From a virus, in the IMG/VR virus record IMGVR_UViG_3300042558_005646: a stretch of 64,000 nt of DNA; one strand, written 5' to 3'. The notes below the pieces were generated by a model that worked only from the letters and a program-made list of their open reading frames with translations, searched no databases and had not been told where the DNA came from. The translations under genes were made by a program, and so were the position numbers. Below, one piece after another: positions 18,579 through 46,537 of this stretch; the first letter of the stretch is position 1, and each line of letters begins with the position of its first letter.

Positions 18579-19037
18579 TTATCTAATTGGTAATCTATTT
18601 TTCCAACCATTTCCTTCATCAACATTTTTCTGATAGGTTTCTTCCCAAGAAAATTTATCGCACAAATCAGCTCCGCTATGAATTGCCATAGATGGGCTTG
18701 ATGCTGGATTACCTGGGTCTACATAAGCAGGACCAGGAACATTATCAGGACCATGTAATTGTCCTTCTATATTTGCACCATCAGCTTCTCCACCCAAATC
18801 CATATATTCTTTTGGAACTTTTCTAGGATTTATTTTTTGTCTCCAATAGTCATTTTGTTTTGTTTCTTCTTCTATTTCCTCATATGGAACCAAAGAAACA
18901 TTTGGAGATTGAGTTATTGATTGCTGTGGATAATATTGTGCAATTTTTTCAAACAACTTATCTGACTTTAAGTATTCGCCAGATTTATCCAATCTTGAAC
19001 ATATTTTTATAATTGTTTGAATTGATTTAGCATTCAT
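18579..19037 (-). CDS. Putative internal head protein with LDxxG leader
   Basis: N-terminus RLDKSGEYLKSDKLFEKIAQ; contains IEGQL. Confidence 0.45.
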   Translation of the reverse strand: MNAKSIQTIIKICSRLDKSGEYLKSDKLFEKIAQYYPQQSITQSPNVSLVPYEEIEEETKQNDYWRQKINPRKVPKEYMDLGGEADGANIEGQLHGPDNVPGPAYVDPGNPASSPSMAIHSGADLCDKFSWEETYQKNVDEGNGWKNRLPIR

Positions 19038-19049
19038 GATTTTGAACCT

Positions 19050-20042
19050 TTAAAGACTATGACCCGATATCCCGTAGAATGCAGATCCTGGATACGATTC
19101 TTCAACGCCTTTAGGTTCTTTGTTTGAAGGATCGATAAAATCTAAATAATTTGTATCTTTTTTCTTTGGATTCAATTGCTGTTCAAAAGAAACGAAAGGA
19201 TCAATATCTTTTGTTGCTTCTGATTTAGGGGCAATATCTTTTGGCGCATATATATTTGGTTTTGTATCAGGATCAGGGTAAGACAATAAAGTGTCTTTCA
19301 AGCCATACTCTTGGAATCCATCTTCATTTGGAGTTTTTTCAATCATCAAATGATTTATATAATCATTGAAATCTTCACCGTGAGTTAGGATGGGAGTTTT
19401 TCCAATTGGAACATAACTAAATTGATTTTCATCAAATTCATTTCGTTCTTCAGGATATTCTTTTGTCATCCTGTTTCTTCTTGCAATTTCATAGTCTTCT
19501 GCAATACGATTTATTGACTTATCTGAAATGGCAAAATGTAATCTTTCTGGCTTATCTGGATCTTTGTATTCTTCTCTTGGATATTTGAAATCTTTATTGT
19601 ATTTATGACGATCTTCTAAGGATTGCTCCATAGTCATCATATGCTCTTTTTTTGGCTGATAATGATCTCGTATATATGCTGGACTATTTTTCATTAAGTC
19701 GCTTGCTGCATTTTCTAAAGATTTTTTGTAATTATGTAATTGAGCTCTAAATTTAGCTCTTAATCTTTCCTCAGGAGTAAGTTCGTAAGGAATTAATTCT
19801 TCATAATTTTTATGTTGTGGAGTCAATCTTGACTCTATATTGACATCTCTTGTATCAGGTTCAATATGGGTACGTCTTAACAATTTATCGAAGCTTGAAT
19901 CTTCGTCTACGTATAAATTGATTTCATGTCCACCTCGGTTTCCACCACCACGACCGATAGGACTACCACCAGGCTGAAATGGAGCTCCATTCCCTCCACC
20001 GCCTACACCACCAAATTGAGCTGTTCTGATATTGTTAGACAT
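19050..20042 (-). CDS. Putative internal head protein
   Basis: Starts MSNNIRTAQ followed by a Gly-rich segment; FEQQL and MEQSL motifs. Confidence 0.45.
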   Translation of the reverse strand: MSNNIRTAQFGGVGGGGNGAPFQPGGSPIGRGGGNRGGHEINLYVDEDSSFDKLLRRTHIEPDTRDVNIESRLTPQHKNYEELIPYELTPEERLRAKFRAQLHNYKKSLENAASDLMKNSPAYIRDHYQPKKEHMMTMEQSLEDRHKYNKDFKYPREEYKDPDKPERLHFAISDKSINRIAEDYEIARRNRMTKEYPEERNEFDENQFSYVPIGKTPILTHGEDFNDYINHLMIEKTPNEDGFQEYGLKDTLLSYPDPDTKPNIYAPKDIAPKSEATKDIDPFVSFEQQLNPKKKDTNYLDFIDPSNKEPKGVEESYPGSAFYGISGHSL

Positions 20043-20076
20043 AATGAATTGTTCTTATAAATAAAAATAATTACCT

Positions 20077-22188
20077 TTATCTTCTATTTAAATTGACCAT
20101 TTTTGATCTTGGCAATCTAATCATAATTTTAGATGTTAAGCATTCAAATGCTACAGCAGCGACTGCATCACAAATATCATCTTTATATCCAGAAAGTGCC
20201 TCAATGTAATATCTTTTGCCTTTCCATTTTTTCTGCAAAAATAAAAATTGAATTTTTGCTTCTTGTATTTCATTTAAAGATATAAGCCTATTATCTAAAT
20301 CTCTATATTCTCCACCAGGCAAATCATAAATATCAATTCGGTCATCACGGATTAATTGTGATAATTCAGTGTAAATTTTTTCCTTGTATTCTTTATTAAA
20401 TTGGCGCTCTACAATTGGGACTCTTCTTGATTGCAATTTAATTAATGATGATTGAGAATTCCATTGATCAATAGAAACTTGCTTGAATTTGAATTTATGA
20501 TGTAAATCGATTACATAATCTTCAACTTCGCTTTCTTTTACAGGTTGATTTTTAGTTTTAGGATTCCAAAAATGTACATGATCAATCACAACTCTTTTGA
20601 GTGGTTGAAAATCAGGCCCAATTTGACCATACATATTTTCAGTATGAGCAATTACAAGAGCGTAGTAGTCTGACGTTCTGGCAGGGTCTAAGTGGCAAAA
20701 ATATTCAAAATGTCCCTCTGCCATTTCTTTTCTTTTGACCATAGACATTGAAGCGAACATTCTGTCTATATCTTCAGAATTAAACATAGGGTCAGAGGAT
20801 GAAGCACCAAATTCAGCTCCATACTGCATCTGAAATTCTTGAGGATCTTTCTTCTTTTGCCCATCCAACCATTCTTTGTCAATGTTTGGATTTGTAAGCC
20901 AAGTAGGAAGTCTCATCACAAGAGTTGTTGGATCTTCTTGTCTATTTTCGTGAAGATCATATAACAACCCAAGAGGACCTTTAGGGTTGGAAAGAAGCAT
21001 CATTTTGCCATCTTTACCAAATGTAGCAAGAGATGGCTTTAAGTCATCATAAAGAGCGTAGTCAACACCAGATTCAGGATTATCTCCAGCCATAGCAGCA
21101 ACTTCGTCCATAATAATTGCCCAACAAGTTAAACCAACAAGACCTGAAGCATTACTACTACCACATCGCAATACCAAAGAACCCGCAAAAAGATTGATAT
21201 TTTGCTCTTTTCTTCTTACATTCTCTTCTCTATCATGTTCTGTATAAAATCGCATTTCAAGCTCTGTATCTTTGCCAATATAAGGAGCAAAGAATGGAGA
21301 AGCTAGAACTGTTTGTTTGATTTTTGAGAAGATTGCTTTTTTAGCCTGTTCTTCATTACGAGCAACATTGAGAAGAACAACTTCATCAAATTCCATCAAG
21401 CCATATCTAGCTTGAGGGTGACCCATAGAAATCAATCTATATAATTCATAAAGAGCCATAGCAGACACAAGGAATGACTTACCCGAACGTCTGCCAAGCA
21501 CTAAAACTAATTCTTCAAATTTATATCTTTTTTTGCATTTTTCTTGAACTTGCATCCTTAATTTTGGGTCAAATTCTTCGGAATAAAGTAAGTCGAATTC
21601 ACTTTGAAAAGCATCAATTATTGGTCTTGCTTCTAATACCTCAACTTGTCTTTCAGCATCTGGGTTAGTTGCTTCATCTTTTGCAAATTTATATCTTTCA
21701 TCTCTAACTTCATTTTTAAGACGCTTACATTGAAGACAAGGTGAATTGACGACATTGAAAATTGTTTTGAATTGTCTTTTTTCTGCACGGGCTTTTAAAA
21801 ATTCATTTTCGTTCTTTTGGATATAATCCCAAACACATCCTTTGCAATCTTCTTGATTGTCAGATTCATTTATTACAAGGTTAGTATTGCCTTCTTGCCC
21901 CATATAAAAACATTTAAGTATAAGTTTTTGCCAAGGATAAGGTCTTAGATTACAAAAATATGGATGTTCAATAAATGTAATAATGTCTACAATTTGGTCA
22001 GGGTTAAATCTGTCTTTAGGAGGTTTGACTGGAGGTGCTACTTCTTGTCTTGTAGCAGGAGCAATTTCATCTACAAAATCTTCGGCATATTCCGTGCCTT
22101 TGAATAATTCTGTAACTGAATTTGCTTGCTGTAATAATTGACTTCGTAATTCGTTTGAAGATTTAACGACTGGAGTTGGCTTTCTCAT
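20077..22188 (-). CDS. terL: Terminase large subunit
   Basis: Walker A GRRSGKS, Walker B IIMDEVA, coupling motif LSNP, RNase H-like HLDPARTSD, DQWNS and KDDICDA. Confidence 0.92.
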   Translation of the reverse strand: MRKPTPVVKSSNELRSQLLQQANSVTELFKGTEYAEDFVDEIAPATRQEVAPPVKPPKDRFNPDQIVDIITFIEHPYFCNLRPYPWQKLILKCFYMGQEGNTNLVINESDNQEDCKGCVWDYIQKNENEFLKARAEKRQFKTIFNVVNSPCLQCKRLKNEVRDERYKFAKDEATNPDAERQVEVLEARPIIDAFQSEFDLLYSEEFDPKLRMQVQEKCKKRYKFEELVLVLGRRSGKSFLVSAMALYELYRLISMGHPQARYGLMEFDEVVLLNVARNEEQAKKAIFSKIKQTVLASPFFAPYIGKDTELEMRFYTEHDREENVRRKEQNINLFAGSLVLRCGSSNASGLVGLTCWAIIMDEVAAMAGDNPESGVDYALYDDLKPSLATFGKDGKMMLLSNPKGPLGLLYDLHENRQEDPTTLVMRLPTWLTNPNIDKEWLDGQKKKDPQEFQMQYGAEFGASSSDPMFNSEDIDRMFASMSMVKRKEMAEGHFEYFCHLDPARTSDYYALVIAHTENMYGQIGPDFQPLKRVVIDHVHFWNPKTKNQPVKESEVEDYVIDLHHKFKFKQVSIDQWNSQSSLIKLQSRRVPIVERQFNKEYKEKIYTELSQLIRDDRIDIYDLPGGEYRDLDNRLISLNEIQEAKIQFLFLQKKWKGKRYYIEALSGYKDDICDAVAAVAFECLTSKIMIRLPRSKMVNLNRR

Positions 22189-22868: not shown

Positions 22869-22887
22869 TTCTTTAGTTATACAAGCA

Positions 22888-22915
22888 AAACAAGCCGCAT
22901 AAATGCGGCTTGTTT
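22888..22915 (-). terminator. Hairpin terminator
   Basis: AAACAAGCCGCAT-nn-ATGCGGCTTGTTT. Confidence 0.8.
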
Positions 22916-22934
22916 CTTTCTGTTAGGATATAAA

Positions 22935-23648: not shown

Positions 23649-23787
23649 TTATCTTATCTCCCTTAGATTTTTTTGATCCCCACCAACAAAAGGACTTAAA
23701 TAAATAAACCTCTAGACGTGCTTGAAAAGTCGTAGAGGTTTTTGTGGAACATATTAGTATAATACGAGAATTTCAAAAATATATTCC

Positions 23788-23815
23788 AAAGGTTAAATTA
23801 GTACATTTGTAAAAT
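23788..23815 (+). promoter_or_regulatory. Putative late promoter AAAGG-N17-TAAAAT
   Basis: Matches the recurrent motif; 9 nt upstream of the ATG of the 903-aa gene. Confidence 0.5.
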
Positions 23816-23824
23816 AAAAAATAT

Positions 23825-26536
23825 ATGTGGTACTCAAAAATTATCGAATCTGCAACAGCCTGGGACGTTTTATCTACTAAAGAAGTTTTGTGGGCTGGCT
23901 CTTTCTCTAGAACTTTCAAAGATTTTTCATTTTACGATCCAAATGAAAACCCTACTATGACTGCTATGCTCAAGTTTATAGGAGATATAGAAAAGGGCAG
24001 AACTGGTGATTCAATTATTGATAAATATCTTGAGAAAGCGAAAAATGACGGCAGTACTTTGTCTGACATTTCAATTTTTTCTTATAATTTATCAAAATTT
24101 ATTGATAATGAAATGAAAAAACAAGGAAGTTCTGCTAATACAGATATGATGAAAGTATTAGACTTTCTTGGCAAACTCAATGAATATATAAAATCAAGAG
24201 GCGGAAATGGCATAGAACTTGGTGATAGAATTCCAGATATTGACAAAGTAAAATCATCTGTCAATAGCACTCTTGGTATGGGATTTACCACATTAAATTT
24301 ACTCTTGAAAAAAGGCACGAGTATGAATGAGGCACTAGCTATGTTTATCATTCGTGGAGATGATGTTAACTTACTAGGATATCCTCTTTCTCAACAAAGA
24401 AACTTGCTTGTTTATCAACTTCTTGAAGCCAGACCAGAATTAGAATATTTTCAAAATCAAGAAAATGTTGTAAATTTAATTAGACGTGGAGAGGGAAAAT
24501 TCTATTTTCCAAACATCAAAGAATACATTTTTTCAGGTATTACCGAAAGCAAAATTTTAGAAATTGTTTTTGAGTTATTATTGAAAGATTTTGATCAAGT
24601 AGATGTTGCAAGTATGCTTCACTATCTTCCAAACAAAACTCAAATTAACGTAGCTGTAAAAATCGATGAATACCCACAGTACGATAGATTTTGCCAAAAT
24701 ATAGCAGAAAAGTTATACTCAAGTATCGGTGAGTATGATTTTGATCAAGATGTTTTATTAATAAGAAAACTTAAATCTTTCAAAAAATTTATGGATCTTA
24801 TTGATAGTAAAGGTGATCAATGCTCTCCTTTATTTATAATCAAGGGAATTGCAAAACCACAAGTTATTATAAATTATTTAGATAAAAATCCAGAAGATTA
24901 TGAAAAATTTGATGTTAATTTATTAGACAGCCTTGGCAGTGAAATTAAAAACCAAATTCAACAAAAAGGCAAAGCTGCAAAAGCCAGAATTCAATCTGAT
25001 GGTTTTGCTCTTTTAGAAAAAGCACAACAAGAAGGAGTTATAAAAATAATTAAAGCTTCTGACACTGCTTTTAATTATGCTTACGGAAAAGGACCAAAAA
25101 GAGACCCAGCACCACAAGGTATGTCTGAAAGCGAACAAAGACAAAAAGAAAAGTCTGATGAAATATTTTCAAAGTTCCAACAGTCATATGAAGATCGTAT
25201 GCAACAAGAAGCTCCATTTGCTGGCGTAAGTACTGAAGATATAAGTAAATATGCTGATCAAATGGTGATTGTAGAATTTAGCACTTATAGCTTAAAGAAT
25301 TTTATGCGAGAAAATAATGTGCCTAAATTAAAAATAGGTCCTGTAGATTTTACTGATGAGAAATGGGGTGGATTATTTGTACCTAAATTTCCAACAAAAG
25401 ATATGGGTCCACGTCCAGCAATTATTATCAAAACAGATATATGGTCTCAATTAGCTTTTCATAGAAAATTAGCTGAAAATATTGGAATGGATGCTAATCA
25501 TTATCTTGAAGCCACTAAAAGACACGAAGTAGCTCACGCATTACAGTATCTTCAATCTGGAGATTTGATGATGGAAGATTCTGTAGCTTTAAATCCAGAA
25601 TTGACTCCTGAAGAAGCTTACATATCTGATCCTTCTGAACTATATGCAAGAATTCACGGAGATATACCTTATCTGGCTAGAATCTTTGATGCTCATATTG
25701 GAAAATTGATGGCAGATCCAAAAATCTATCAAGCTGCCAAAGAACAATGGATTCTAGATATCCAGGATGAAATGATTCACTTGATGTCAGGTGGAACAAA
25801 TGCTAAAAGATTACTTGAAGATATGGAGACTGGTAGATTTGGAACTTACACCTCATCTACAGGACAAACAATTACATTAACTGATCCTCTTGAAGTAATT
25901 AATAAAAAATTACAGCGTCAAAGAAACAGATTGGAAATGATTTTTCACGAGACTTTTCAAATTCAAGGAAGACGTGATTATAGAAGAGGGTTGATTGGTA
26001 AGAAAAATCAATTAGCTCAACAAATTGAATCTACCCCTATTTATTCTTCTGAAAGAACCAAACTCGAAAAAGAATTAAAAGAAGTTGAAACAAATTTAGT
26101 TGAATCAGGGAGAATGCTTATCTTTGATGTGAAAGATGTATCTGAGGCTGTAGTTGAGGGATATTTAGCAGATTACTATAGCAAAATTGCGAAAGCTGTA
26201 GCAGATGGCTTACTTACAACAGATACAATTAATCCTCAAGGCGAAGATCAAAGAGTAGAAAATCAGCAATTACGTGAAGAAGCTAAAAAACAAGAACCAC
26301 CAACAGCACAAGACATTAAACAACACGCAAGATTTCAAATTCAACAAACAGAGCCTATCCCGAGTGGCAGAAAGATTGACGTTATTATTCCAAGATATAA
26401 AGGTACTGGAAGACCACCTGGCAATTTTCCAGGCTTTGATGATGCAGAAAAAGATGATCAACAAGTTGATATTACTATAGAAAGAAAAGAAGACAAAATT
26501 GCTAGCGTTTTCAATTACAGAAAATTAATCAAATAA
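23825..26536 (+). CDS. Large MWY-leader protein with a zincin metallopeptidase motif
   Basis: MWYSKIIESA leader; RHEVAHALQ followed by SDPSELYAR. Confidence 0.55.
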   Translation: MWYSKIIESATAWDVLSTKEVLWAGSFSRTFKDFSFYDPNENPTMTAMLKFIGDIEKGRTGDSIIDKYLEKAKNDGSTLSDISIFSYNLSKFIDNEMKKQGSSANTDMMKVLDFLGKLNEYIKSRGGNGIELGDRIPDIDKVKSSVNSTLGMGFTTLNLLLKKGTSMNEALAMFIIRGDDVNLLGYPLSQQRNLLVYQLLEARPELEYFQNQENVVNLIRRGEGKFYFPNIKEYIFSGITESKILEIVFELLLKDFDQVDVASMLHYLPNKTQINVAVKIDEYPQYDRFCQNIAEKLYSSIGEYDFDQDVLLIRKLKSFKKFMDLIDSKGDQCSPLFIIKGIAKPQVIINYLDKNPEDYEKFDVNLLDSLGSEIKNQIQQKGKAAKARIQSDGFALLEKAQQEGVIKIIKASDTAFNYAYGKGPKRDPAPQGMSESEQRQKEKSDEIFSKFQQSYEDRMQQEAPFAGVSTEDISKYADQMVIVEFSTYSLKNFMRENNVPKLKIGPVDFTDEKWGGLFVPKFPTKDMGPRPAIIIKTDIWSQLAFHRKLAENIGMDANHYLEATKRHEVAHALQYLQSGDLMMEDSVALNPELTPEEAYISDPSELYARIHGDIPYLARIFDAHIGKLMADPKIYQAAKEQWILDIQDEMIHLMSGGTNAKRLLEDMETGRFGTYTSSTGQTITLTDPLEVINKKLQRQRNRLEMIFHETFQIQGRRDYRRGLIGKKNQLAQQIESTPIYSSERTKLEKELKEVETNLVESGRMLIFDVKDVSEAVVEGYLADYYSKIAKAVADGLLTTDTINPQGEDQRVENQQLREEAKKQEPPTAQDIKQHARFQIQQTEPIPSGRKIDVIIPRYKGTGRPPGNFPGFDDAEKDDQQVDITIERKEDKIASVFNYRKLIK

Positions 26537-28101: not shown

Positions 28102-29199
28102 TTAATCCATTGGGAAAAGAATGTGCTTAAAGTTTTCAGCTTCGAGCATCAATAAAATAAAATCATTATGCTTTATAAAATTAAGTTTTAATTTCTTGCT
28201 ATCGAGCAAATCCAAAACTCTTATCAAATGAGAAGAAACATAAGATACAGATAAAATTTCATAATTTTCAACTTCAATGGTATCTACAACAGCATTTTTT
28301 TCATTACTTGTTGCTGATATCACGATCTTGTTGATGTCAAGAGTTAAGTTTATCATATGAGAATTTGTAATATTGGATACAAACTTAACACTCTTTACCA
28401 ATGCATCTTTTTCTAAATCGAGTGAAAGAAAAAATTGATCACTGAAAAATTGATTGAAGTTTGAAAAGATCTTCTCGTAAGTATTTTTCTCAAGATTGCA
28501 AGATAATTCTCCACCATTCCAGGTCAAATAAATTTTGCTATTATAAAGAGAGAAAACGATGCCAGGTATTTTTTCAATATAATAAAGAACTACATCTGAA
28601 ATTGTTTTGGAAATCAGATAAGATTGTTGTAATTCATATTTTTTACCAAACACGCTAATTCTATGCTTGTCTGAAGATTGAGTGTTTATTTTTCCATCTT
28701 CTATAAACCAAAGAATAGAAGTGTAAGGATGTTCATCAAAATCAGGTGCGCAAGAAAATGAAGTCATTTTTATACTGTGAACAAAATCATCTGCTGTAAT
28801 ATCTAGCGTTTCTAAATCTTGAGAAAAACTAACAATAAAATTATCAACAGGAACGGTAGCCAAAGATACTCTAGTTTTCTTGTTTCCAAAGATGAGTAAA
28901 TTGTCGGCAGGGCTATAAATAAATTGAACTTCTTCTGTTGGAAAGTTATTTAAAGCATTGAAAAAAGAAGACACGTCTAAGCCAAATGTTCCATCTTCTG
29001 TAGGTTGAACATTTGTAAGTAAAAACTTTGAACAACAGAAATTGTTTTCTGTCTGTACGTAAAGCTTCCCATCAATTGAATGAAAAATAAGACTACTTGA
29101 TGCAGCTTTATTTTCACGCATAGATAGCTTCGATTTTTCGATTTTATTAAGTAAGGCAAAACAAACGAGATGTTCTGCCTTATTCAACTTAAATTTCAA
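28102..29199 (-). CDS. dnaN: DNA polymerase III beta sliding clamp
   Basis: About 365 aa with three-domain beta-clamp spacing; SSDKHRIS equivalent of ATDGHRLA; TTG start overlapping the purA stop. Confidence 0.75.
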   Translation of the reverse strand: MKFKLNKAEHLVCFALLNKIEKSKLSMRENKAASSSLIFHSIDGKLYVQTENNFCCSKFLLTNVQPTEDGTFGLDVSSFFNALNNFPTEEVQFIYSPADNLLIFGNKKTRVSLATVPVDNFIVSFSQDLETLDITADDFVHSIKMTSFSCAPDFDEHPYTSILWFIEDGKINTQSSDKHRISVFGKKYELQQSYLISKTISDVVLYYIEKIPGIVFSLYNSKIYLTWNGGELSCNLEKNTYEKIFSNFNQFFSDQFFLSLDLEKDALVKSVKFVSNITNSHMINLTLDINKIVISATSNEKNAVVDTIEVENYEILSVSYVSSHLIRVLDLLDSKKLKLNFIKHNDFILLMLEAENFKHILFPMD

Positions 29200-30191
29200 T
29201 GCAGTTGTCCTTGAAATTGGATAAATACACCAGGAAGAACCATTCCAACTTCTTTCCAAATATTAGAAACAAATGTATCTTCATTTGCACAAGAAATCAA
29301 CATATTATTTTCGTAATAATTCCAAGCGCTGTCAACTTGTCGAAGAACATCCATTTTGTTGATAATAAGCTTTGTAACACCATTCATTTGACAAGCAGTT
29401 ATGACTTCTTGGATATTTAGCCAGTCGATTTGTCTTGGTCGTCCGGTTGTGGCTCCATACTCTTGACCAATTTCTCTGAGTTGTTCAAATCGCTCGTCAT
29501 CTTTTTGGTATCCTTTAGCTCCAACATAGGTAGAATAACACTTGATAACCCCGACAACATCCCGTACTTGCTTATAATTGAAACCATTGTTTAATACTGC
29601 TCCTACTCCAGTGTTTGATGAAGTGACATAAGGATAATCACCAAAGTCAATATCAAGCCAATATCCTTGAGCACCTTCAGCTAAAAATTTCTTGGGTGAA
29701 GAATGAATAAGGCTGTGCATATCAACAAGATATGGTGCCAATTCTGGAACATCTTTAGCACGAAGACCTGTGCGACCAACTTTGTCTTTATAACAAGGGC
29801 CATTTCCAGTGCGAGTTGTTCCAATAGTTGTATCTTTGGAATCTTCGTCAATATGTTCTTGGGTAATTATGTGTGCGTTTTCTGCAATCTTTAAAAGCGA
29901 TGTATTGAATCCAAGTCCTTCAAGATACGCAAGTTCGTCAAATAATTTTTGCGTATTGATAACACAACCATTACCAATGACACTAGGAATGCCATGCAGA
30001 ACGCCACAAGGAACAAGATGCGTAACAATTTTCTCTCCATTGATGTAAATTGTATGACCAGCATTTCCTCCACCGTTAAAACGGACAACGTAGTCATATT
30101 CACCTGATGCAGCCATTTGATTGGCTATTTTGCCCTTGCCTTCATCACCATACTGCATACCGATAACTACATCAACAATTGAAGTTTCCAT
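29196..30191 (-). CDS. purA: Adenylosuccinate synthetase, short form
   Basis: GMQYGDEGKG, GGGNAGHT, EGAQG, YPYVTSS, EYGATTGRPR. Confidence 0.92.
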   Translation of the reverse strand: METSIVDVVIGMQYGDEGKGKIANQMAASGEYDYVVRFNGGGNAGHTIYINGEKIVTHLVPCGVLHGIPSVIGNGCVINTQKLFDELAYLEGLGFNTSLLKIAENAHIITQEHIDEDSKDTTIGTTRTGNGPCYKDKVGRTGLRAKDVPELAPYLVDMHSLIHSSPKKFLAEGAQGYWLDIDFGDYPYVTSSNTGVGAVLNNGFNYKQVRDVVGVIKCYSTYVGAKGYQKDDERFEQLREIGQEYGATTGRPRQIDWLNIQEVITACQMNGVTKLIINKMDVLRQVDSAWNYYENNMLISCANEDTFVSNIWKEVGMVLPGVFIQFQGQLH

Positions 30192-30197
30192 ATGCAC

Positions 30198-30226
30198 ATT
30201 CTACTTCATTGTAGAGATGCAAGCAA
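30198..30226 (-). promoter_or_regulatory. Sigma-70-type promoter, probably leaderless, for purA
   Basis: TTGCTT-N17-TAGAAT-N6-ATG with no Shine-Dalgarno sequence. Confidence 0.55.
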
Positions 30227-30227
30227 G

Positions 30228-30851
30228 TTATAATTCTATGTCTTTTTCTTCGTCAAAAAACTCTCTATCATCAATACCATTTACAACAACATCAACGTGT
30301 GTATCTGGGAATTTTTGTCGAACTTTTTCCATTGCTTCTTCTTTGCTGTAATCTTCAAGGGTCAAATTTGAAGTGAAAACTACATCGTGAGAAATTTCTT
30401 CGGCATCTTCTTCCTCACCATATAAATTTTCTAATCCAGGGATAGAAAGCTGATCTGTTAAGAGTTTGCCCTCTTTGTCAGAACCTTTTGATAATGATTT
30501 TAATGATAAAGGATCTAAAAAGAAAAATTTCCATACTCCACTTTCAGGAAATAAAATAATTTGAGGATAAATTGCAAAATGTCTTCTTGTTCCTTTGGAT
30601 CTTTCAACAAGTTGTTCCATAGGATCTTTTGATGGATCTACAGTGAACTTTTCATCTCCAAGAACCTCTACAATATCTCTGCCTTGTTTTCTTGCTTTAG
30701 TTAATGCAAAATCAGAATATGTCTCTGGATTTCTATACACAGTATCAAAGTCTAAATCTGATTGATCTATTGCAACTTTGGTAAATTTGTCAGCAAGTTT
30801 GAAGCATCCTAAATTGTCTAGGATAGAAGCAGTGCGAAGAAAATTTATCAT
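30228..30851 (-). CDS. Hypothetical protein with LDxxG leader
   Basis: MINFLRTASILDNLGCFKLADKFTKVA. Confidence 0.5.
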   Translation of the reverse strand: MINFLRTASILDNLGCFKLADKFTKVAIDQSDLDFDTVYRNPETYSDFALTKARKQGRDIVEVLGDEKFTVDPSKDPMEQLVERSKGTRRHFAIYPQIILFPESGVWKFFFLDPLSLKSLSKGSDKEGKLLTDQLSIPGLENLYGEEEDAEEISHDVVFTSNLTLEDYSKEEAMEKVRQKFPDTHVDVVVNGIDDREFFDEEKDIEL

Positions 30852-31555
30852 AACTTACTTTTTGGCACTTTATGAGTAGCATCCTTCTTCTCATCATCTT
30901 TGAATTGAGTATAAACTTCAGATGCTTTTTTTCTAATTCTTGTAAGTGCATTGTCAACACATTTGGCTGGAACACTTAGTGTTTGTGAAATTTCTTTATA
31001 TGAAGAATTGTGGCCATACTCAACAAATATATCTGCCTCTAATGGCGTAAGCTTGTCCATCAATAGTTCTGAGTTTAATTCTAGTTCTTCTCTAACAATA
31101 AGATCTTCTACTAAATTTACTTCTGGAGATTCATCATAAGGATTTTTCTTATCAGGGATATAGTCTCCCAAAGAATGGAAATTACCATCGTCATTTAAAA
31201 TAAAAGGAGCGTCAAGCGAAATAGAATCATTCAAAGCTGAATTCTTCATTCTTTTCGCTGACGCTATAGCTGTTGCAAGATGTCTTTTACAAACTAAATT
31301 TACGCAAAAGTTCTTAAATGTTGTATCTTTAGTACAATCGTAGGAATTTACCGCTTTAAATACACCTAATCTCAATTCTTGCATTACATCTTCTCTGTCT
31401 CCACCGACTATGAAAAAGTGTGGTGCAATCTTTTTGAGATCTGGTTCTACCATCTTGAGCAGTTTTTTAAAGGCTGCTTCATTACCTGCTTTTGCTCTAT
31501 TGACTATTCTTACTATTCTGAAATCTTCGGTTGCCATCAAAACTCCCGAAGGCAT
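30848..31555 (-). CDS. sigH: SigH-like sigma factor
   Basis: GGDREDVMQELRLGVFKAVNSYD, KRHLATAIASAKRMKNSALNDSISLDAP and SYKEIS...KCVDNALTRIRKK align with recalled B. subtilis SigH motifs. Confidence 0.8.
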   Translation of the reverse strand: MPSGVLMATEDFRIVRIVNRAKAGNEAAFKKLLKMVEPDLKKIAPHFFIVGGDREDVMQELRLGVFKAVNSYDCTKDTTFKNFCVNLVCKRHLATAIASAKRMKNSALNDSISLDAPFILNDDGNFHSLGDYIPDKKNPYDESPEVNLVEDLIVREELELNSELLMDKLTPLEADIFVEYGHNSSYKEISQTLSVPAKCVDNALTRIRKKASEVYTQFKDDEKKDATHKVPKSKL

Positions 31556-31577
31556 AATTCATTATAAAAACTTCTTT

Positions 31578-32639
31578 TTACGCCTTTTCCCTATTTGCGT
31601 ACTTTTCTATAATTTTGAGGATACCTGTAGTTGCAACAATATCCTCAGAGACAGTTTGCCTTATATCTTTTGAAATGTTATACAATTGTTCTGCGATATC
31701 TATAAGCAACAAAGTATCAACAGACTTGGCTATTTCTTCTATATCAGGGACTCTTTCACCCTTTTTTGTCTTTATTACAACATATCTGAATGCTGTTATG
31801 AAGATTTGAGATGTTTCAAGTAATAAATTACCTAAGTTTCTTCCCTCTGCATTGGAAGCTTGAATTATTCTAAAAGCATTGGCAAAATCTTCATTGATAA
31901 CACAAAAAGAAAGATCAATTGCTAATTGTTTTGGTGATCTATCAAGCAACTCTCTAATGTTTTCTTCTGATATATCACTCATAGAAGCTTGTTCAAGAAT
32001 AGAAAGAGCAGTTCTAGCACTTCCTTCAGCATCAGTTGCAATAAGATTCAAGGCTTCTTCGTCATAAACAAGATTTTCTTTCTCACAAACTTCTTCTAAT
32101 AATTGAACAAGATTTTGCTTGGTCAATTTCTTCATAAGAAAAGTCTGACAACGAGTATGTATTGCACGAAGAATTTTATGTGGGTCAGTTGTGCAAAAGA
32201 AAAACTTTACATACGCTGGTGGTTCTTCAGTAAGCTTAATTAGAGATGTTTGCGCTTGAGTGGTAAGCATTTGAGCTTCATCAAGAATAAAAATCTTGTA
32301 CTTACCCAAAGTTGGAGCAAGACGAGATAGTTGAACTACATTTTCTCGAATATGATCAACACCATTATTTACAGCGCAATTAATTTCATAAACATCAGGA
32401 TGCTCATCACTCAACACCATATCCTTCAAATCATCTTGATCGTCATTACAAAGAAGATGAGCTGAAGCAACACGGGCAAGAGTTGTCTTACCAGTGCCAG
32501 GAGGACCAGCTAAGATGTAAGCATGAGTAGTCCTTTTATTCTGAATCTGTGTTTCAAGAATTTCAGCAGATTTACTACCCTTGATATCCTTAAATGTTCT
32601 AGGGCGATATTTATTGTAATAGCTTTGACTAATCATCAT
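31578..32639 (-). CDS. dnaX: DNA polymerase III gamma/tau subunit (gamma-sized)
   Basis: KYRPRTF, GPPGTGKT, ILDEAQML, EEPP, RCQ. Confidence 0.9.
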   Translation of the reverse strand: MMISQSYYNKYRPRTFKDIKGSKSAEILETQIQNKRTTHAYILAGPPGTGKTTLARVASAHLLCNDDQDDLKDMVLSDEHPDVYEINCAVNNGVDHIRENVVQLSRLAPTLGKYKIFILDEAQMLTTQAQTSLIKLTEEPPAYVKFFFCTTDPHKILRAIHTRCQTFLMKKLTKQNLVQLLEEVCEKENLVYDEEALNLIATDAEGSARTALSILEQASMSDISEENIRELLDRSPKQLAIDLSFCVINEDFANAFRIIQASNAEGRNLGNLLLETSQIFITAFRYVVIKTKKGERVPDIEEIAKSVDTLLLIDIAEQLYNISKDIRQTVSEDIVATTGILKIIEKYANREKA

Positions 32640-33111
32640 CTTCCATTGGTAAAATTAAAGGTAAAGCGTGAGTGCCATCCAACAATGAAGGCAATCCATC
32701 TTTCAATATCCAGTATGGACCATATCCGGCTCTAACAAAGTATTCTGTAATAAAGCCAAAATCCTGTACATCGAATGAACGAATTTTACCATCTTGTGAA
32801 GGACTTATAGAGTACAAGCAACGGAAAATAATCCATTCTTTTTTTGACTGCTCTAATTCTTCCCAGAGATCAGACCAGACTCCAAGGCAATAAACTTTAC
32901 CATTGCCAAGAGATTGTAAAATTCCCCTAGCCCAAGATTGAGTTAACCCCGACATAATATATGGCGGGGCATTCTTTCCTTTATATCCATCCATTTCAAC
33001 AAAGTGAACTAAATCTAAGTTTACATATCCTATAAATGGATAATATTTAGAAATAAGTTTTTCTGCAATTTCTTTGCATTCAATAGATTCAATAAATTCT
33101 GGATCACTCAT
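32629..33111 (-). CDS. Phage metallopeptidase-like protein lacking the HE motif
   Basis: Layout (EIAEKLI, W..L...KEWII, DVQDF) resembles the putative phage metallopeptidase family, but HExxH is absent. Confidence 0.4.
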   Translation of the reverse strand: MSDPEFIESIECKEIAEKLISKYYPFIGYVNLDLVHFVEMDGYKGKNAPPYIMSGLTQSWARGILQSLGNGKVYCLGVWSDLWEELEQSKKEWIIFRCLYSISPSQDGKIRSFDVQDFGFITEYFVRAGYGPYWILKDGLPSLLDGTHALPLILPMEDDD

Positions 33112-33443
33112 AATGATAACTGAGTAACTGCTACAACTTGACCACTCTCATCACGAATTGCTGTTGGACCTGTATCTACACTAAATACATCTTCACGATC
33201 AAATGGAATGAACTCCATTGATACTCTGTTGACTATGTAATAAACACCATCTTCAGGATCAGGAAGATTTACAATCTTTTCAAAATGAGTTTCAGCAACA
33301 GGAACGCTTGCAACTTTACCAATAATTCTTTGTTTAGTTTGAACAAAGCAAGGATTTTCTGCCCTTGGTAAAGTTCCATATCCTGAAATTGTAATATCGT
33401 GTCCAATTAAGTTCACAAATTTTTTAAATTCTGGATACATCAT
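33108..33443 (-). CDS. Hypothetical protein
   Basis: NLIGHDI...LPDPEDGVYYIV...RDESGQVVA resembles a small protein family often seen in phages. Confidence 0.5.
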   Translation of the reverse strand: MMYPEFKKFVNLIGHDITISGYGTLPRAENPCFVQTKQRIIGKVASVPVAETHFEKIVNLPDPEDGVYYIVNRVSMEFIPFDREDVFSVDTGPTAIRDESGQVVAVTQLSL

Positions 33444-33817
33444 AAATCTATCCCTGCTACACCTTCATTGCGCTTTGGCTGACAAACAAAGGCTGACTGA
33501 TCTCCATTAGCTCTCAAATCATTTATAAGAACTCTAGACCCACCGCCAATGCCCATTACTAATTGATCATAAACAATACCAGCATAAGAAAGCTGCTTGA
33601 CTGTTACATCTCGCAAGCTTTCTTTACGTCCAGTAGTAAGAATGATCTTATAGCCTTTGCTATCCCATTCACGAACCTTGTCTACGGTTCCGTGAATAAT
33701 TTTAGGTTGATATCCAGGTTTGGCAATTTCAGTAGGATCACCTTGTTCCCAAAGTGTTCCATCTAAATCACAAAAAATAGTGTAATTCTTTGTGGCTTGG
33801 TCAATGTTATGTTCCAT
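33440..33817 (-). CDS. HAD-superfamily phosphatase
   Basis: CDLDGTL, LTTGR, INDLR. Confidence 0.8.
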   Translation of the reverse strand: MEHNIDQATKNYTIFCDLDGTLWEQGDPTEIAKPGYQPKIIHGTVDKVREWDSKGYKIILTTGRKESLRDVTVKQLSYAGIVYDQLVMGIGGGSRVLINDLRANGDQSAFVCQPKRNEGVAGIDL

Positions 33818-34338
33818 TACTTACCTGTACTACCCAATCCACCCTTGCGGGATGTCTTGTCAGTTGAAGTAAATTCTTCAACTTCTACAAGTTCGTGATC
33901 TGCCAACTTTGCTACAACCATTTGAGCAATTCGATCACCATGCTTGATTGAAAATGGAATCTTGTTGTGGTTAATAAGAATAACCTTAAGTTCAAAATCT
34001 TCTCCATCGCCACAATAATCACTGTCAATAGTGCCTGGAGTATTGAGAACTGTGACGCCAAATTTTGCAGCTAAACCGGAACGAGGGCGAATTTGGATCT
34101 CGTACCCATTTGGAATATTTACATTCAAGCCAGTAGGAACAATCAAAGTTGAATGTGGAGCAATAAGAGTTTGCTCATCATAAGATTCCTTAAGCCAAGC
34201 ACAAAGATCATACCCAGCAGCACTCTCAGTTGCCTTCTTGGGAATTACTGCGCTCTCACGAAAAGCTTTAATTTCAACTGTTGCCTTAGCAACAGTAGGC
34301 ATATTTACTGTAACTTGTCCACTACCTGATGCAGCCAT
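33817..34338 (-). CDS. dut: dUTPase (trimeric)
   Basis: AAGYDL, RPRSGLA, GTIDSDY, GDRIAQ, RKGGLGSTG. Confidence 0.95.
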   Translation of the reverse strand: MAASGSGQVTVNMPTVAKATVEIKAFRESAVIPKKATESAAGYDLCAWLKESYDEQTLIAPHSTLIVPTGLNVNIPNGYEIQIRPRSGLAAKFGVTVLNTPGTIDSDYCGDGEDFELKVILINHNKIPFSIKHGDRIAQMVVAKLADHELVEVEEFTSTDKTSRKGGLGSTGK

Positions 34339-34694: not shown

Positions 34695-36647
34695 ATGTGG
34701 TATAGAATTGCACAAGAAAGATCTGTATTTAGACCTAGAGAATGGAAAAGTGAAGTTAAAAAAGAAGCTGATGGTACATCACTAACTTTTTATAGTCCTG
34801 CTAGACGTGTAAAAAATAAAACAAAATATGACCCAAGAGGTTCTTATTTTGGATTTTATCAAGAATATCCAAATATAAGAATTTTATTCAAATATCCTAA
34901 AGATTATGGGTCTTTGGATGATCCTTATAATAATATGTTAGAGTTTAATATACCGCAATCAGAAATAAACGAGATATTAAAAAGAGTTCTCAATGTATTA
35001 TCCAAATATAATAAAGGTTTTTTCCATGGTGAGACTATTGTAAATATTGTCTCTGAAATTCATCCTGATAAAGCTTCTGGGGTTAAACCTGCAGCATTTG
35101 CTGAATTAGGTGGTAATAAAGTTTTCTCTGACAAAGATAGTATTGCAATGGCGTTGGATCACGAAATTGGACATCTTTTAACAGATTTTCAACCACTTGA
35201 TGAAGAAAAAAAAATGATGACAGAAGGTTCTCCATCAATTTATGGTGAGGAGAGCTACAAGGAAGCTTTTGCTGAGGCATTTGAACTTCTGATGAAAAAG
35301 GGATACAATTTCAGATTTGAAGAAACTTCTCAAAATAACATTAAACAAAATAAACTTTTAGATTATGTTCGAAAAAAAATAAACCCTTCGGATTTTATAA
35401 ATTTACAATTTACCGAACCTGTCGAAAGTGGAAAATTTAATTTTAATGAAAATAAAGAAAAAGATTTATCTGATTATAATGCAGCTAGACATACTGCTTT
35501 AGTTGGCGCTTTTCAAAATGCCATAGATAAATTCAAGGGTGATAAAAATTCTTATGCAAAATCTTTATTATCAAATAAACAAAAAATTAACGAAATAGTC
35601 AAATATGTTAATGGATTGATGATGTTTATCAACAATCCTGCAAATCAAAAAGAAATAGATTTAGCTGTTAAAACAATTGGTATATCTTCTGATAAAAAAC
35701 CTAATCCTAATTCTTTTAATATTAATGGGACAAGATTTAATAAAATACTTGAAAAAGATGCGAGTACAAGTGTAAGTAAATTTTATTTACCAAAAGCAAT
35801 CAAAGACTTTATAGACATTAATATTGGAATGGCAAAATATTATGGACCTTCCAAAGTGCTTAACTCATTAATTTCTCAACCTAAACCTTATCATCCATTA
35901 GATGAATATATGCCAACTGAGTTATCTTACTTAGAAAAAGATCCAAAAAACTTTGGAGAATTTTGGGATCCTAGATACTCTATTAACAAAATACCAAAAA
36001 ATAAATTAAATAAAATTCCACAAGTCTCTGTTTTTGATCAACTTGTACCAGTTGATGAGTTGGAATATAAAATTGGTCAAAGCATTATCAATGCAAGCTC
36101 TTCAAAAAATAACACTTATTTAAACGATAGTTTTGAAATTGAATATCTAGCTAATAATTTAATAAAACAAATTTTTCCTCCACTTAATTATAAAAATCCA
36201 GAAGACTATCTTTATTACGATTTTCATTTAGATAGCTCTGGAGATTATAGTTTAGACACAAATGCAGTGGAACAAAAAATAAACAATGCAATTAACACAA
36301 GCGAATTTACAAAAAAAATGAATGACGCTCAAAAGAAAAAAATTGCATATGAATTGCGAACAAGAATAAATAGAGTTAAAAATTCTCATACAAATATATT
36401 AAACAAAACCATAGAAGAAGGAGATATTTTTGGAGATTCAAGCTTATTCCCAGGCGGTAAGTTTAGAAATATTGGATCAAGCATAAATGTAGCTAAACAA
36501 GCAGTAGACAAATTATTTACTGCAAAAATTCCAAGAAGAAATTTATTATTTATGAGAATTTATAACAATACTGGAATATCTGAAAAACAAAAACAAGAAT
36601 TGTTAAATTACTACAAATCCAAACAAGCGCAAGTTTTAAGGAAATAA
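34695..36647 (+). CDS. MWY-leader protein with a zincin motif
   Basis: MWYRIAQ leader; LDHEIGHLL followed by EAFAEAF. Confidence 0.55.
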   Translation: MWYRIAQERSVFRPREWKSEVKKEADGTSLTFYSPARRVKNKTKYDPRGSYFGFYQEYPNIRILFKYPKDYGSLDDPYNNMLEFNIPQSEINEILKRVLNVLSKYNKGFFHGETIVNIVSEIHPDKASGVKPAAFAELGGNKVFSDKDSIAMALDHEIGHLLTDFQPLDEEKKMMTEGSPSIYGEESYKEAFAEAFELLMKKGYNFRFEETSQNNIKQNKLLDYVRKKINPSDFINLQFTEPVESGKFNFNENKEKDLSDYNAARHTALVGAFQNAIDKFKGDKNSYAKSLLSNKQKINEIVKYVNGLMMFINNPANQKEIDLAVKTIGISSDKKPNPNSFNINGTRFNKILEKDASTSVSKFYLPKAIKDFIDINIGMAKYYGPSKVLNSLISQPKPYHPLDEYMPTELSYLEKDPKNFGEFWDPRYSINKIPKNKLNKIPQVSVFDQLVPVDELEYKIGQSIINASSSKNNTYLNDSFEIEYLANNLIKQIFPPLNYKNPEDYLYYDFHLDSSGDYSLDTNAVEQKINNAINTSEFTKKMNDAQKKKIAYELRTRINRVKNSHTNILNKTIEEGDIFGDSSLFPGGKFRNIGSSINVAKQAVDKLFTAKIPRRNLLFMRIYNNTGISEKQKQELLNYYKSKQAQVLRK

Positions 36648-36648
36648 T

Positions 36649-37011
36649 ATGTGGTACAAATTTGCCCAAGAACAAAATGATATTCTAGAATTAATCAATT
36701 TCTTCATAAATAAATATCCAGAAATTGTTTTAAGAATCAATGAATATGAAAACAAAATCAAATTAGATAAAATATTTATCCCCAAAGAAATGAGAGGGAT
36801 TGGCATAGGAACAGAAATAATTACTGCTCTTAAAGAATATAGCCAAAGAGTAAACAAACCAATTGTCCTCAACCCTGAACCTGAAAAAGGTAAAAAAGGT
36901 GCTCTTCAAAGATTTTATGAGCGAAATGAATTTGTAGATAATGCTGGAAGAAGAAAAGATTATGATTTAACAGACACATTTTCCAGAACTATGTACTATA
37001 AACCAAAATAA
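36649..37011 (+). CDS. MWY-leader GNAT acetyltransferase
   Basis: MWYKFAQ leader; IFIPKEMRGIGIGT acetyl-CoA motif; LQRFYERNEF. Confidence 0.75.
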   Translation: MWYKFAQEQNDILELINFFINKYPEIVLRINEYENKIKLDKIFIPKEMRGIGIGTEIITALKEYSQRVNKPIVLNPEPEKGKKGALQRFYERNEFVDNAGRRKDYDLTDTFSRTMYYKPK

Positions 37012-40493: not shown

Positions 40494-40518
40494 CCCTTCC
40501 TTTAATTAGTATGAGGTA

Positions 40519-40962: not shown

Positions 40963-40964
40963 TT

Positions 40965-41351: not shown

Positions 41352-41353
41352 TT

Positions 41354-42328: not shown

Positions 42329-42381
42329 TTAAGATCCCTCGTTGATATTACAATTATAGTGATGTTTTTAAAAATTAGAAA

Positions 42382-44175: not shown

Positions 44176-44932
44176 TATTAGCCCCAATATATAAAGTTTT
44201 CTTACCAGATTCAATCATTTTTTGAATAGTTTCATCCAAGAATGAAACTTCAAATTTTTGCGCAAAGTCATCAGGATCCATACCAAGAGGAAGAAATAAT
44301 CTCAAAGCATTCAGGCCTAATTCTTCAATTTTATTAATTACTTTTTCAGATGCAATTTTTCCAGCATCATCGGCATCCATTACAACAACAAGATTATCAC
44401 AGTATCTGGATGCTAAGGCAACTTGATGATCAGATATAGCAGTTCCGCAAAGGGCAACAGTATTTTCCAATCCATTGTCATAGAAAGAATAAACGTCAAA
44501 ATATCCTTCTGTCAATATAAGATAATTCTTTTGACGTGCCATTGTTTTAGCGATATCGAGAAAGAATAAATTTTTATTCTTTTGATAAGGTTCGTTTATC
44601 CATTTGCCTTTTGACCATTTGTTTATTTTGTCAGCACACCTAGCTGGTTCATGTCCGTAAAGGTCCCAAAAAGCTTGAACAGTTTGATCTTTTAATTCTG
44701 GGATTTGCCTACCAGCAAGAGCAATAAAATTTCCATGAACGTCTTTAATAGGAACAATTAATCTGCCTTTTAGTAATGAAAATTCGTATCTGGAGTATGA
44801 AGGGCAAAATGCTACTAAATTGTTTTCTATTATCTTTTTTGAAAGATTTCTAGTTTTAAAATATTCTTGAACAACTTTGTTTTCATTGTAGTTGCGTAGA
44901 AATTGATTGTAGTTCAATTCAAAGCTGTTCAT
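44168..44932 (-). CDS. dnaG: DNA primase catalytic/TOPRIM core without the zinc-binding domain
   Basis: RLIVPI...AGR, TEGYFDV, CGTA, MDADDAG; no CHC2 motif. Confidence 0.85.
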   Translation of the reverse strand: MNSFELNYNQFLRNYNENKVVQEYFKTRNLSKKIIENNLVAFCPSYSRYEFSLLKGRLIVPIKDVHGNFIALAGRQIPELKDQTVQAFWDLYGHEPARCADKINKWSKGKWINEPYQKNKNLFFLDIAKTMARQKNYLILTEGYFDVYSFYDNGLENTVALCGTAISDHQVALASRYCDNLVVVMDADDAGKIASEKVINKIEELGLNALRLFLPLGMDPDDFAQKFEVSFLDETIQKMIESGKKTLYIGANNG

Positions 44933-45008
44933 CAGTAAATTGTATCATTAAAGGAAAGAAAAGCAATTTGTAGGAAAAATATTGTAGTTTTCCCCAAAGG
45001 ATAGATAA

Positions 45009-45713
45009 ATGAATAAATTTCAAAAATTATCTCAATTAAGTAAAGACATAGAATTATTAGAGAATGCTGGCAAAATTAAAGCAGCAGAAGTTCTTCATAA
45101 AAAGTTTATCAGAGAAGCTCAATATGCAATGCCTCAGATGATGTCAATGATGCCTCAGATGATGCCAATGATGCCTCAAATGATGCCAATGATGCCTCAA
45201 ATGATGGCAAGACCAACAATCGCTCCAACAGCTCTAGCCAGACCAGTTGTCACACCTGCACCAATGCCTATAGCCCAACCAAGAACAACTCCTGTTCAAA
45301 CAATAGGTACACCAAATCCAGGAGTTAGTCCAGCACCAACTCCTGCTCCTAAACCCGTCCCAAGTCCAGGCAATATGAAGATAGCTCCAGAACCTTCACC
45401 AGCACCACCTCCGCCACCTTCTGGACAAACAACACCACCAAAGCCAACACCCACAGAAGGTGGAAATTATGGAATGATTCCTGGACCTGGCGGTAAAACA
45501 ATTTTTACTGACCCTGGTACTGGAAATGCAGTAGATCCCCCTGGCAGCCAAGATTTGTTTGATACCTTTTACGGCCAATTGCAAGATGCTAACAGATATC
45601 CAGAACCTCACAGAAGTCAATATTTACAGTTCTTACGTGGCAAAATTAATGATAATAAAAAGAAATTAGGCGATAGACTGTTTGGCAGTTTATTTGATGT
45701 GTATTTAAGATAA
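45009..45713 (+). CDS. LExxG-leader protein with Met/Pro repeats
   Basis: N-terminus LLENAGKIKAAEVLHKKFIREAQ, then MPQMMxM repeats and a Pro-rich linker. Confidence 0.55.
   Translation: MNKFQKLSQLSKDIELLENAGKIKAAEVLHKKFIREAQYAMPQMMSMMPQMMPMMPQMMPMMPQMMARPTIAPTALARPVVTPAPMPIAQPRTTPVQTIGTPNPGVSPAPTPAPKPVPSPGNMKIAPEPSPAPPPPPSGQTTPPKPTPTEGGNYGMIPGPGGKTIFTDPGTGNAVDPPGSQDLFDTFYGQLQDANRYPEPHRSQYLQFLRGKINDNKKKLGDRLFGSLFDVYLR
45129..45212 (+). repeat. 21-bp tandem repeat x4 encoding MPQMM(S/P)M
   Basis: ATGCCTCA(G/A)ATGATGnCAAnn repeated four times. Confidence 0.9.
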
Positions 45714-46537
45714 TGAGTTTTTTTCAAAAGTTATCACAAATTAACAAAGACATCGTATTACTTGAATCTTTTGGAGATTTTAAGGCTGCCGATGTTTTGC
45801 ATAAAAAATTCATCAGAGAAGCACAAAATGAAGTGGAGCCAATTTCTTACTCGAATAAAGATAAAAAAAGAGGTTCAATTTATAAAAAAAGATTCAATGA
45901 TAAGCTTAACAGAGGTTTATTAGTGAAAGATGAAAATAAAGATAAGTTTATAAGTTCGATATACGCTGATAGTTTTTTTTATGATGAAGATAAAGAACAA
46001 CTTGAAAGTTTGATAAGACAAACAATTAAACCAGCTGCTCCATCTAGTACTGTTATTCCATCTTCAACATCGAATCCACAACAAAATTTCACAGAACTTC
46101 AAACAGATTTAGCTAAAGATTATATGGCACAGCTTAATGCAGCAAAAGGTGAATGGGATTTAGATTTTATTAAAATGCAGTATGAGAGACAAGGACTTCC
46201 CCCATTTGAAGCTAAGATTTTAGATGATCTTATAATCAAAATTAAAAGTTCAAAACGTAATAAGTTAATGACTGGCTTGAAATCTGACTTAGATGCCGTA
46301 AATGCAACTCCTGGAACTAACACTGAATTTATTAATTTAAATGAATCATCTATACCTAAACTTCAAGCTAGAATTGACCATTATAGACAAAAAATTAATA
46401 AATACAAAATTACTAAAGATCCAGCTATGCATAAATATCTTAAAAAATTCATTAAAAAAAATTATGATAATAATTTATTAGATTCAAAATCATATGTGAC
46501 GTTTATGAAAGAATTGGGAATCAACATTCCTACATAA
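45713..46537 (+). CDS. Paralogous LExxG-leader protein
   Basis: First 38 aa nearly identical to the upstream protein (LLESFGDFKAADVLHKKFIREAQ); remainder unrelated. Confidence 0.55.
   Translation: MSFFQKLSQINKDIVLLESFGDFKAADVLHKKFIREAQNEVEPISYSNKDKKRGSIYKKRFNDKLNRGLLVKDENKDKFISSIYADSFFYDEDKEQLESLIRQTIKPAAPSSTVIPSSTSNPQQNFTELQTDLAKDYMAQLNAAKGEWDLDFIKMQYERQGLPPFEAKILDDLIIKIKSSKRNKLMTGLKSDLDAVNATPGTNTEFINLNESSIPKLQARIDHYRQKINKYKITKDPAMHKYLKKFIKKNYDNNLLDSKSYVTFMKELGINIPT

Follow-up and report, generated by a model that had tools for sequence, protein, structure and literature searches.

The 64,000-nt stretch of DNA analysed here (IMGVR_UViG_3300042558_005646; hereafter the window) comes from an uncultured freshwater jumbo phage, and four of its proteins open with the same short tag. 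The four open reading frames, which we call P0001 to P0004, lie at 18579-19037(-), 30228-30851(-), 45009-45713(+) and 45713-46537(+), and their translations begin with the N-terminal motif quoted for them in an earlier note on this DNA. Besides the head genes listed in Table 1, the window codes for two sigma-like factors, ribonucleotide reductase and replication genes. A search of IMG/VR with the terminase found 175 relatives, including the contigs G001 (358 kb) and G002 (316 kb); the clade is one of uncultured freshwater jumbo phages of ~260-360 kb. The window is collinear with G001, and core genes are 80-98% identical between the two.

Table 1. Tagged proteins and head genes of the window (AF2, AlphaFold2; HMM, hidden Markov model; iE, independent E-value).
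Feature	Position	Strand	Basis
P0001 hairpin tag, residues 1-34, ...LDKSGEYLKSDKLFEKIAQ	18936..19037	(-)	translation; AF2; HMM iE 2e-7
P0001 body: mostly low-confidence, probably disordered, acidic, Pro/Gly-rich	18579..18935	(-)	
P0002 hairpin tag, residues 1-27, MINFLRTASILDNLGCFKLADKFTKVA	30771..30851	(-)	conserved orthologue leaders; HMM iE 3e-7; leave-out HMM 1e-5
P0002 body: acidic, without known family	30228..30770	(-)	
P0003 hairpin tag, residues 1-38, ends FIREAQ	45009..45122	(+)	BLASTP, HMM
P0003 body: (MPQMM)n repeats, Pro-rich low-complexity stretch, short C-terminal domain	45123..45713	(+)	
P0004 hairpin tag, residues 1-38, ends FIREAQ	45713..45826	(+)	BLASTP, HMM
P0004 body: Lys-rich, without known family	45827..46537	(+)	
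Variable cassette island between primase-like and RecA-like genes	44933..46567	(+)	
Major capsid protein	2413-3267		
1378-aa protein with head-maturation-protease domain (residues 82-242)	5804..9940	(-)	phrog_18299, E 4.5e-21
Portal with C-terminal Vsr-like domain	10066..12435	(-)	
Large terminase	20077-22188		

P0001 and P0002 are core genes of the clade. The P0001 gene sits in the terminase/head block, and its tag is the best-conserved part of the protein across 20 orthologues, down to ~35% identity. P0002 finishes in an acidic ...DDREFFDEEKDIEL tail; its start codon overlaps (ATGA, 30848-30851) the stop codon of a sigma-like gene at 30848-31555, which suggests translational coupling. P0003 and P0004 form the cassette island. 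The body of P0003 is related only to three island genes of relatives (L145a, L149a and G001a), and 24 of the 38 tag positions of P0004 are invariant among orthologues down to 53% identity. Pfam and PHROG scans gave no family for P0001-P0004 or for ten tagged proteins of G001, a locus search of IMG/VR with P0004 found no relative, and the protein atlas offered no functional lead. In P0003, residues 39-165 (window 45123-45500) start with Met/Pro/Gln repeats of the form (MPQMM)n, which give way to a long low-complexity stretch rich in Pro; the G001 counterpart has the same type of repeat.

The similarity between the four proteins ends at the Ala or Ala-Gln junction, as the earlier note had claimed. 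P0003 and P0004, the sole significant pair among the four in BLASTP, are alike over residues 1-38 (74% identity, E 2e-15) and not beyond REAQ, and all four bodies are mutually unrelated. Homology running past the leader, which the note had named as the mark of ordinary paralogues, was absent from the pairwise BLASTP comparisons, from the G001 counterparts and from relatives of the island. P0001 and P0002 gave no significant pairwise BLASTP match to the others of the four, and a simple regular expression missed P0001. Profiles joined them: an HMM built from the leaders of P0001 orthologues matched the P0002 family at the exact N-terminus (E 1e-6 to 4e-4), and a refined HMM found exactly these four among the window proteins (iE 6e-12 to 3e-7), with no match in three shuffled proteomes. 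When the HMM was built only from 22 non-orthologous G001 copies, the same four ranked top in the window (1e-7, 1e-5, 1e-3 and 0.015; next 0.69). P0003 and P0004 are the most divergent subtype and were the weakest in this leave-out test; G001_208450 bridges them to the main type.

Searched through the genome and metagenomes, as the earlier note had proposed, the profile found the four copies in the window, 26 carriers in G001 and 1288 cluster representatives globally. The G001 carriers, among ~420 genes, comprise 22 with the tag at the extreme N-terminus, 3 with it at the extreme C-terminus and one tandem pair; G002 has ~20 carriers among 341 genes. About 5-6% of the proteins of these relatives carry the tag. 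The global figure comes from 1.84 billion cluster representatives at E <= 1e-3. Among its top 150 matches, 97 had a single N-terminal copy and 21 were multi-repeat proteins of the tetratricopeptide repeat (TPR) type, and the 76 bodies long enough for comparison fell into 46 unrelated groups: the same tag is fused to unrelated proteins. The members of ten clusters that we looked up were unnamed or annotated 'hypothetical protein', and a literature search found no description of the tag. The module was also absent from Bacillus phage G and LR756502. Three C-terminal carriers are paralogues of ~900-1000 aa; their module follows an acidic linker and is 64-73% identical, compared to ~35% for the bodies. 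Transmembrane-like segments occur in 2 of 45 carriers, as against 85 of 664 other proteins, and the carriers are accordingly predicted to be soluble.

In some relatives, 5-7 small hairpin proteins, most of them acidic, also follow one another in tandem arrays (G001 145518-151650, equivalent to L118:5518-11650, and G002 28879-33894). In several array proteins the hairpin is followed by a D/E-Y/F acidic patch and a CPxC...CxxC zinc ribbon, on which the Pfam model Zn_ribbon_LapB scored 12-13 bits, far under its cut-off.

The tag is 30-38 residues long, with the consensus L-x-K-I-A-x-x-L-D-x-x-G-x-Y-x-x-A-D-x-L-(T/F)-...-K-hydrophobic-A-Q. The two-helix leader proposed in the earlier note is borne out at the level of prediction: from 20 orthologues, AF2 places helices at residues 2-17 and 21-34 of P0001 (predicted local distance difference test score, pLDDT, 74-82), followed by a low-confidence body. 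The multi-copy proteins at the top of the global search were TPR_10/TPR_12 proteins, several of them NB-ARC/STAND proteins, and their repeat ...MNNLANVLDNQGKYVEAE... closely resembles ...LNNIANELDNSGLYKEAN..., the consensus of the phage tag. In hhalign, the tag alignment (A2) matched 47 kinesin-light-chain-type repeats with 96.8% probability (E 2.7e-10, 34 columns), a comparison somewhat biased by the fact that these repeats were drawn from proteins matched by the A2 profile. The four window families alone matched TPR repeats with 94.3% probability, while twenty column-shuffled profiles reached at most 0.6% and the reversed profile 1.9%. The agreement extends to the canonical TPR signature, with small residues at positions 8, 20 and 27, G15, Y17 and hydrophobic residues at 11 and 24.

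Pfam scores stayed below threshold. Of ten tagged proteins scanned at E up to 10, L118:10959-11288 alone gave TPR_10 (14.6 bits, E 0.035, compared to gathering thresholds of 27.5 bits for TPR_10, PF13374, and 30.1 bits for TPR_12, PF13424), and P0001-P0004 gave none. Phage copies occur singly or as two distant copies in one protein, and none forms a tandem array of three or more repeats. Since the likeness to TPRs comes with sub-threshold Pfam scores and never with arrays, the tag is, judged by its sequence, a solitary TPR_10/12-like helical hairpin and not a member of the Pfam family.

Helix B of the hairpin is short in P0001 and P0002 and about one turn longer in P0003, P0004 and the G001 arrays, and it ends in K-hydrophobic-A-(Q) in either form. 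Globally, [KR]-x-[AS]-x closes the single N-terminal tag in 96 of 97 cases. In C-terminal carriers, x-A-[SF]-[VI]-K coincides exactly with the boundary between acidic linker and module. The junction string is also enriched in the proteins of the head module (3301-20042), where [KR]-hydrophobic-[AS]-[QS] occurs 19 times as against 3.9 +/- 2.2 in shuffles, a 5-fold excess; elsewhere in the window it occurs 21 times as against 9.9 +/- 3.3, and in both comparisons the shuffles keep composition and not helical periodicity. Within the first 12 residues the string is found in 8 of 62 window proteins (1.0 +/- 1.0 expected). In the distant G002 the motif is kept at 14 of 19 head sites; for five control motifs taken together the figure is 9 of 28.

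The portal has [KR]-hydrophobic-A-[SAQ] strings on either side of its core and none inside it: those at residues 12, 47 and 92 come before the core, and those at 564 and 586 belong to the linker that leads to the Vsr-like domain. The strings bracket the core and precede the Vsr/DUF559-like endonuclease domain, a placement compatible with processing that would free this domain. The 1378-aa protein with the protease domain is the candidate enzyme for the [KR]-hydrophobic-[AS] junctions; its His and Ser motifs are conserved, and it has 11 strings of a looser form, [KR]-hydrophobic-[AS]-[QSAK]. The pattern of strings in the head proteins resembles what a maturation-protease site would look like, and we regard it as a candidate for one.

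The tagged bodies vary from genome to genome. With the RecA-like gene as anchor, the cassette island was compared across 18 relatives: it was empty in about half and otherwise held one or two opposite-strand genes, each beginning with the hairpin. The leaders of these island genes are 58-87% identical, and the bodies belong to at least five unrelated groups. The G001 genes at the position of P0003 and P0004 have only the leader in common with them (60-82% identity). The P0003 and P0004 leaders are ~72% identical in DNA, with many differences at third codon positions that point to selection on the peptide. More broadly, carriers are enriched in the accessory genome: 38% of carrier bodies have a homologue in the other genome, compared to 65% of other genes (p = 0.011), and in the reverse direction the figures are 50% and 77% (p = 0.014). 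A comparison of the regions upstream of the cassettes found one conserved block, which is shared with the 5' region of the divergent primase-like gene and is therefore uninformative about timing.

What does the tag do? It is probably a docking label, and possibly one that loads proteins into the phage head. The best single reading, which we hold tentatively and by analogy, is that the tag loads proteins into the capsid and is then cleaved off, like the capsid targeting sequence (CTS) of phage T4; the earlier note had likewise proposed a packaging tag removed at the Ala site. The reading draws on the constant terminal tag with its swappable bodies, on a junction that matches the head-protein motif and on a phage-coded head protease, and also on the place of P0001 in the terminase/head block and the predicted solubility of the carriers. 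The hairpin would then be a protein-protein docking label, placed mostly at the N-terminus and more rarely at the C-terminus of dozens of proteins that are unrelated, soluble and in many cases disordered, and would take the role of the T4 CTS. From these data we infer docking, the assembling prohead as the most likely destination, and cleavage: the head maturation protease whose domain lies in the 5804-9940 protein would cut the tag at the [KR]-hydrophobic-[AS] junction, and the cargo would be freed inside the capsid.

In T4, the CTS is carried by the internal proteins IPI-III and Alt and removed by the prohead protease gp21 (PMC3012670; see also Mullaney and Black 1996 on the T4 CTS, as relayed in PMC10052503). 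Both systems have a short N-terminal label on unrelated, fast-changing proteins in variable loci, and here too a conserved terminal tag was found on unrelated proteins in such loci. In both, the junction motif is conserved and recurs in head proteins, and the phage codes for a head maturation protease. The cassette behaviour of the island likewise recalls the T4 internal-protein loci. The two also differ. The T4 CTS has ~10 residues, lacks a TPR hairpin and ends in L/I-x-E, and its packaging and cleavage have been demonstrated. The present tag, known from sequence alone, is a 30-38-residue hairpin with a [KR]-hydrophobic-[AS] end that can be C-terminal and is found on ~5-6% of the proteome. 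Neither a gp21-type protease nor an L/I-x-E site was found here: the junctions read K-I-A-Q, K-V-A-I and R-E-A-Q, and the protease matches phrog_18299 only.

Jumbo phages offer a second parallel. In SPN3US (substrates of gp245) and phiKZ, short (20-24 residue) and long propeptides are removed at a simple three-residue motif and the portal is processed too; in SPN3US the cleavage motif is A-x-E and ~80% of head proteins are uncleaved (PMC10052503). The likeness lies in jumbo-phage biology, in the many candidate head-associated proteins and in the proposed removal of propeptides; the propeptides of SPN3US differ in that they are not a shared portable module.

A third comparison is with shell-loading tags outside phages. 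The encapsulation peptides of bacterial microcompartments and the cargo-loading peptides of encapsulins are short helical or linear tags that dock inside a protein shell. They resemble the present tag in occurring at either terminus and in being joined by flexible linkers to unrelated cargo, but they have another sequence and fold, are not removed by proteolysis and do not belong to phages.

Several results weigh against capsid loading with cleavage. TPR-type motifs normally stay in the mature protein as interaction motifs, and the TPR nature suggested by the sequence weighs against a simple propeptide. The residue after the junction Ala is Q in only 53% of tags and otherwise E, Y, D, M or I, and the shuffled controls for the junction string lack the periodicity of real helices. 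Helix A of the hairpin itself contains a K-I-A-[NQ] string, and part of the junction signal may therefore be a structural signature of the fold. Some hairpin copies are at the extreme C-terminus or internal, P0002 overlaps a sigma-factor gene, and P0003 and P0004 lie among replication genes. As to the protease, phmmer against PDB and Pfam at E up to 10 found nothing, no fold search having been made, and AF2, from three sequences, gave a pLDDT of 46. There is, moreover, no cultured relative: the best match to the large terminase among cultured phages has 27.5% identity, and tblastn with a tagged protein did not find the module in 50,697 phage records.

Many of these points fit a retained docking or oligomerisation domain without a link to the capsid, which we consider nearly as likely. 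The hairpin would stay on the mature protein, where it would stack with other hairpins or bind a phage or host hub such as a chaperone, the machinery of transcription or replication, or the large proteins that carry hairpins at the C-terminus, and the [KR]-hydrophobic-A-Q ending would be just the end of TPR helix B. The TPR likeness, in which the small residues for inter-repeat packing are kept, argues for this reading, as do the occurrence of the module at either terminus and in tandem, the genomic settings of P0002 and of P0003 and P0004, and the string inside helix A. No phage-coded TPR array that could serve as a hub was found (PF13424 had 0 matches in G001-G003), although self-associating hairpins would need no multi-TPR partner. 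A retained domain leaves unexplained, however, why a four-residue string is 5-fold enriched and conserved in head proteins and is confined to linkers in the portal, and why the junction is kept although the length of helix B changes.

Capsid loading and TPR likeness can be combined. A single TPR unit might act as a universal address label, stacking on a common partner in the prohead core, or on other hairpins in a 'split TPR' superhelix, with the head protease trimming at K-hydrophobic-A. We consider this version doubtful. Were it true, the phage would inject along with its DNA a large and evolvable set of proteins, drawn largely from fast-exchanging cassettes, and the hairpin would be a fold not previously known as a capsid-loading signal.

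The TPR likeness could also reflect a decoy or inhibitor, in which the hairpin mimics a host TPR repeat and either inserts itself into host TPR proteins or competes with them, the targets being STAND/NLR-type defence sensors, co-chaperones or LapB-like regulators, for example; we think this improbable. The nearest look-alikes in sequence are indeed the TPR_10/12 arrays, several on NB-ARC/STAND proteins, the zinc ribbon after the hairpin in some array members weakly resembles the LapB rubredoxin domain, and carriers are enriched in the accessory genome. The TPR arrays came, however, from a search of 1.8 billion proteins and are not necessarily host proteins, the Zn_ribbon_LapB score is far under its cut-off, and a decoy would explain neither the diversity of the bodies nor the junction motif.

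Two further explanations are very improbable. Ordinary paralogues diverged over their whole length, or a chance amphipathic pattern, would agree with the lack of significant BLASTP matches for P0001 and P0002, but are largely refuted by profiles that, even without orthologues, are specific, hit the exact N-terminus and find nothing in shuffled proteomes, and by a tag that is more conserved than the body and sits on at least 46 mutually dissimilar bodies globally. A membrane-targeting or secretion signal, suggested by N-terminal amphipathic helices common to unrelated proteins, is just as hard to sustain given the absence of a hydrophobic core segment, the scarcity of transmembrane-like carriers, the C-terminal copies and the TPR-like sequence.

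The likeness to TPR_10 and TPR_12, of the kinesin-light-chain/NPHP3 type, lies in the signature of helix A, G-x-Y and helix B, as in N-L-A-x-V-L-x-x-Q-G-K-Y-x-E-A-E of the TPR and N-I-A-N-E-L-D-N-S-G-L-Y-K-E-A-N of the phage; the phage unit differs in being solitary or in two distant copies, in being terminal and in ending in K-hydrophobic-A-Q. This link gives a directly testable structural hypothesis, that of hairpin stacking. If the tag loads the capsid, the injected protein arsenal of an abundant group of uncultured phages could be read from sequence alone and would include candidate anti-defence and host-takeover factors; the tag would also serve as a handle of 35 residues by which foreign proteins could be packaged. 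Should the hairpin instead be retained for docking, dozens of proteins would be using a solitary TPR motif as a portable connector, which is rare, and the binding partner of the motif would be an interesting question. Either way, a family absent from Pfam and PHROGs, with more than 1000 metagenome cluster representatives, can now be annotated by profile. New here are the TPR_10/12 likeness, the statistics of the junction motif, the cassette island beside the RecA-like gene and the enrichment of carriers in the accessory genome.

A shorter tag, MWY[KR]-x-A-Q, is found at the N-termini at 12469, 23825, 34695 and 36649, and resembles the first half of hairpin helix A (...LNKIANELD, MVKIAQKLD). 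A G002 protein (239438-240331) opens with MMNFRKIAQLATQHD and then runs on as a full hairpin. The shorter tag could be the hairpin element in truncated form. The 903-aa MWY-tagged protein at 23825-26536 (+) has the C-terminus ...EDKIAS-VFNYRKLIK, and its orthologues retain K-x-A-S-V ~12-20 residues before the end; a string of this type also lies at the junction of linker and hairpin in the ~1000-aa C-terminal carriers of G001 and G002. The tail of the 903-aa protein may be a degenerate hairpin remnant or a C-terminal propeptide. Two other MWY-tagged proteins, a 650-aa protein at 34695-36647 (+) and a GNAT-like acetyltransferase at 36649-37011 (+) (Pfam E 1.5e-5, just under cut-off), are without G001 counterparts; the position of 34695-37011 is taken in G001 by an MWY-tagged protein of 594 aa together with two ~1000-aa proteins that bear the hairpin C-terminally.

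AGGAG-like ribosome-binding sites precede head genes of the window (3267-3290, 3951-3975, 5648-5670 and 17613-17640), which speaks against a host that does not use Shine-Dalgarno sequences, despite distant nucleotide matches to phages of Flavobacteriia.

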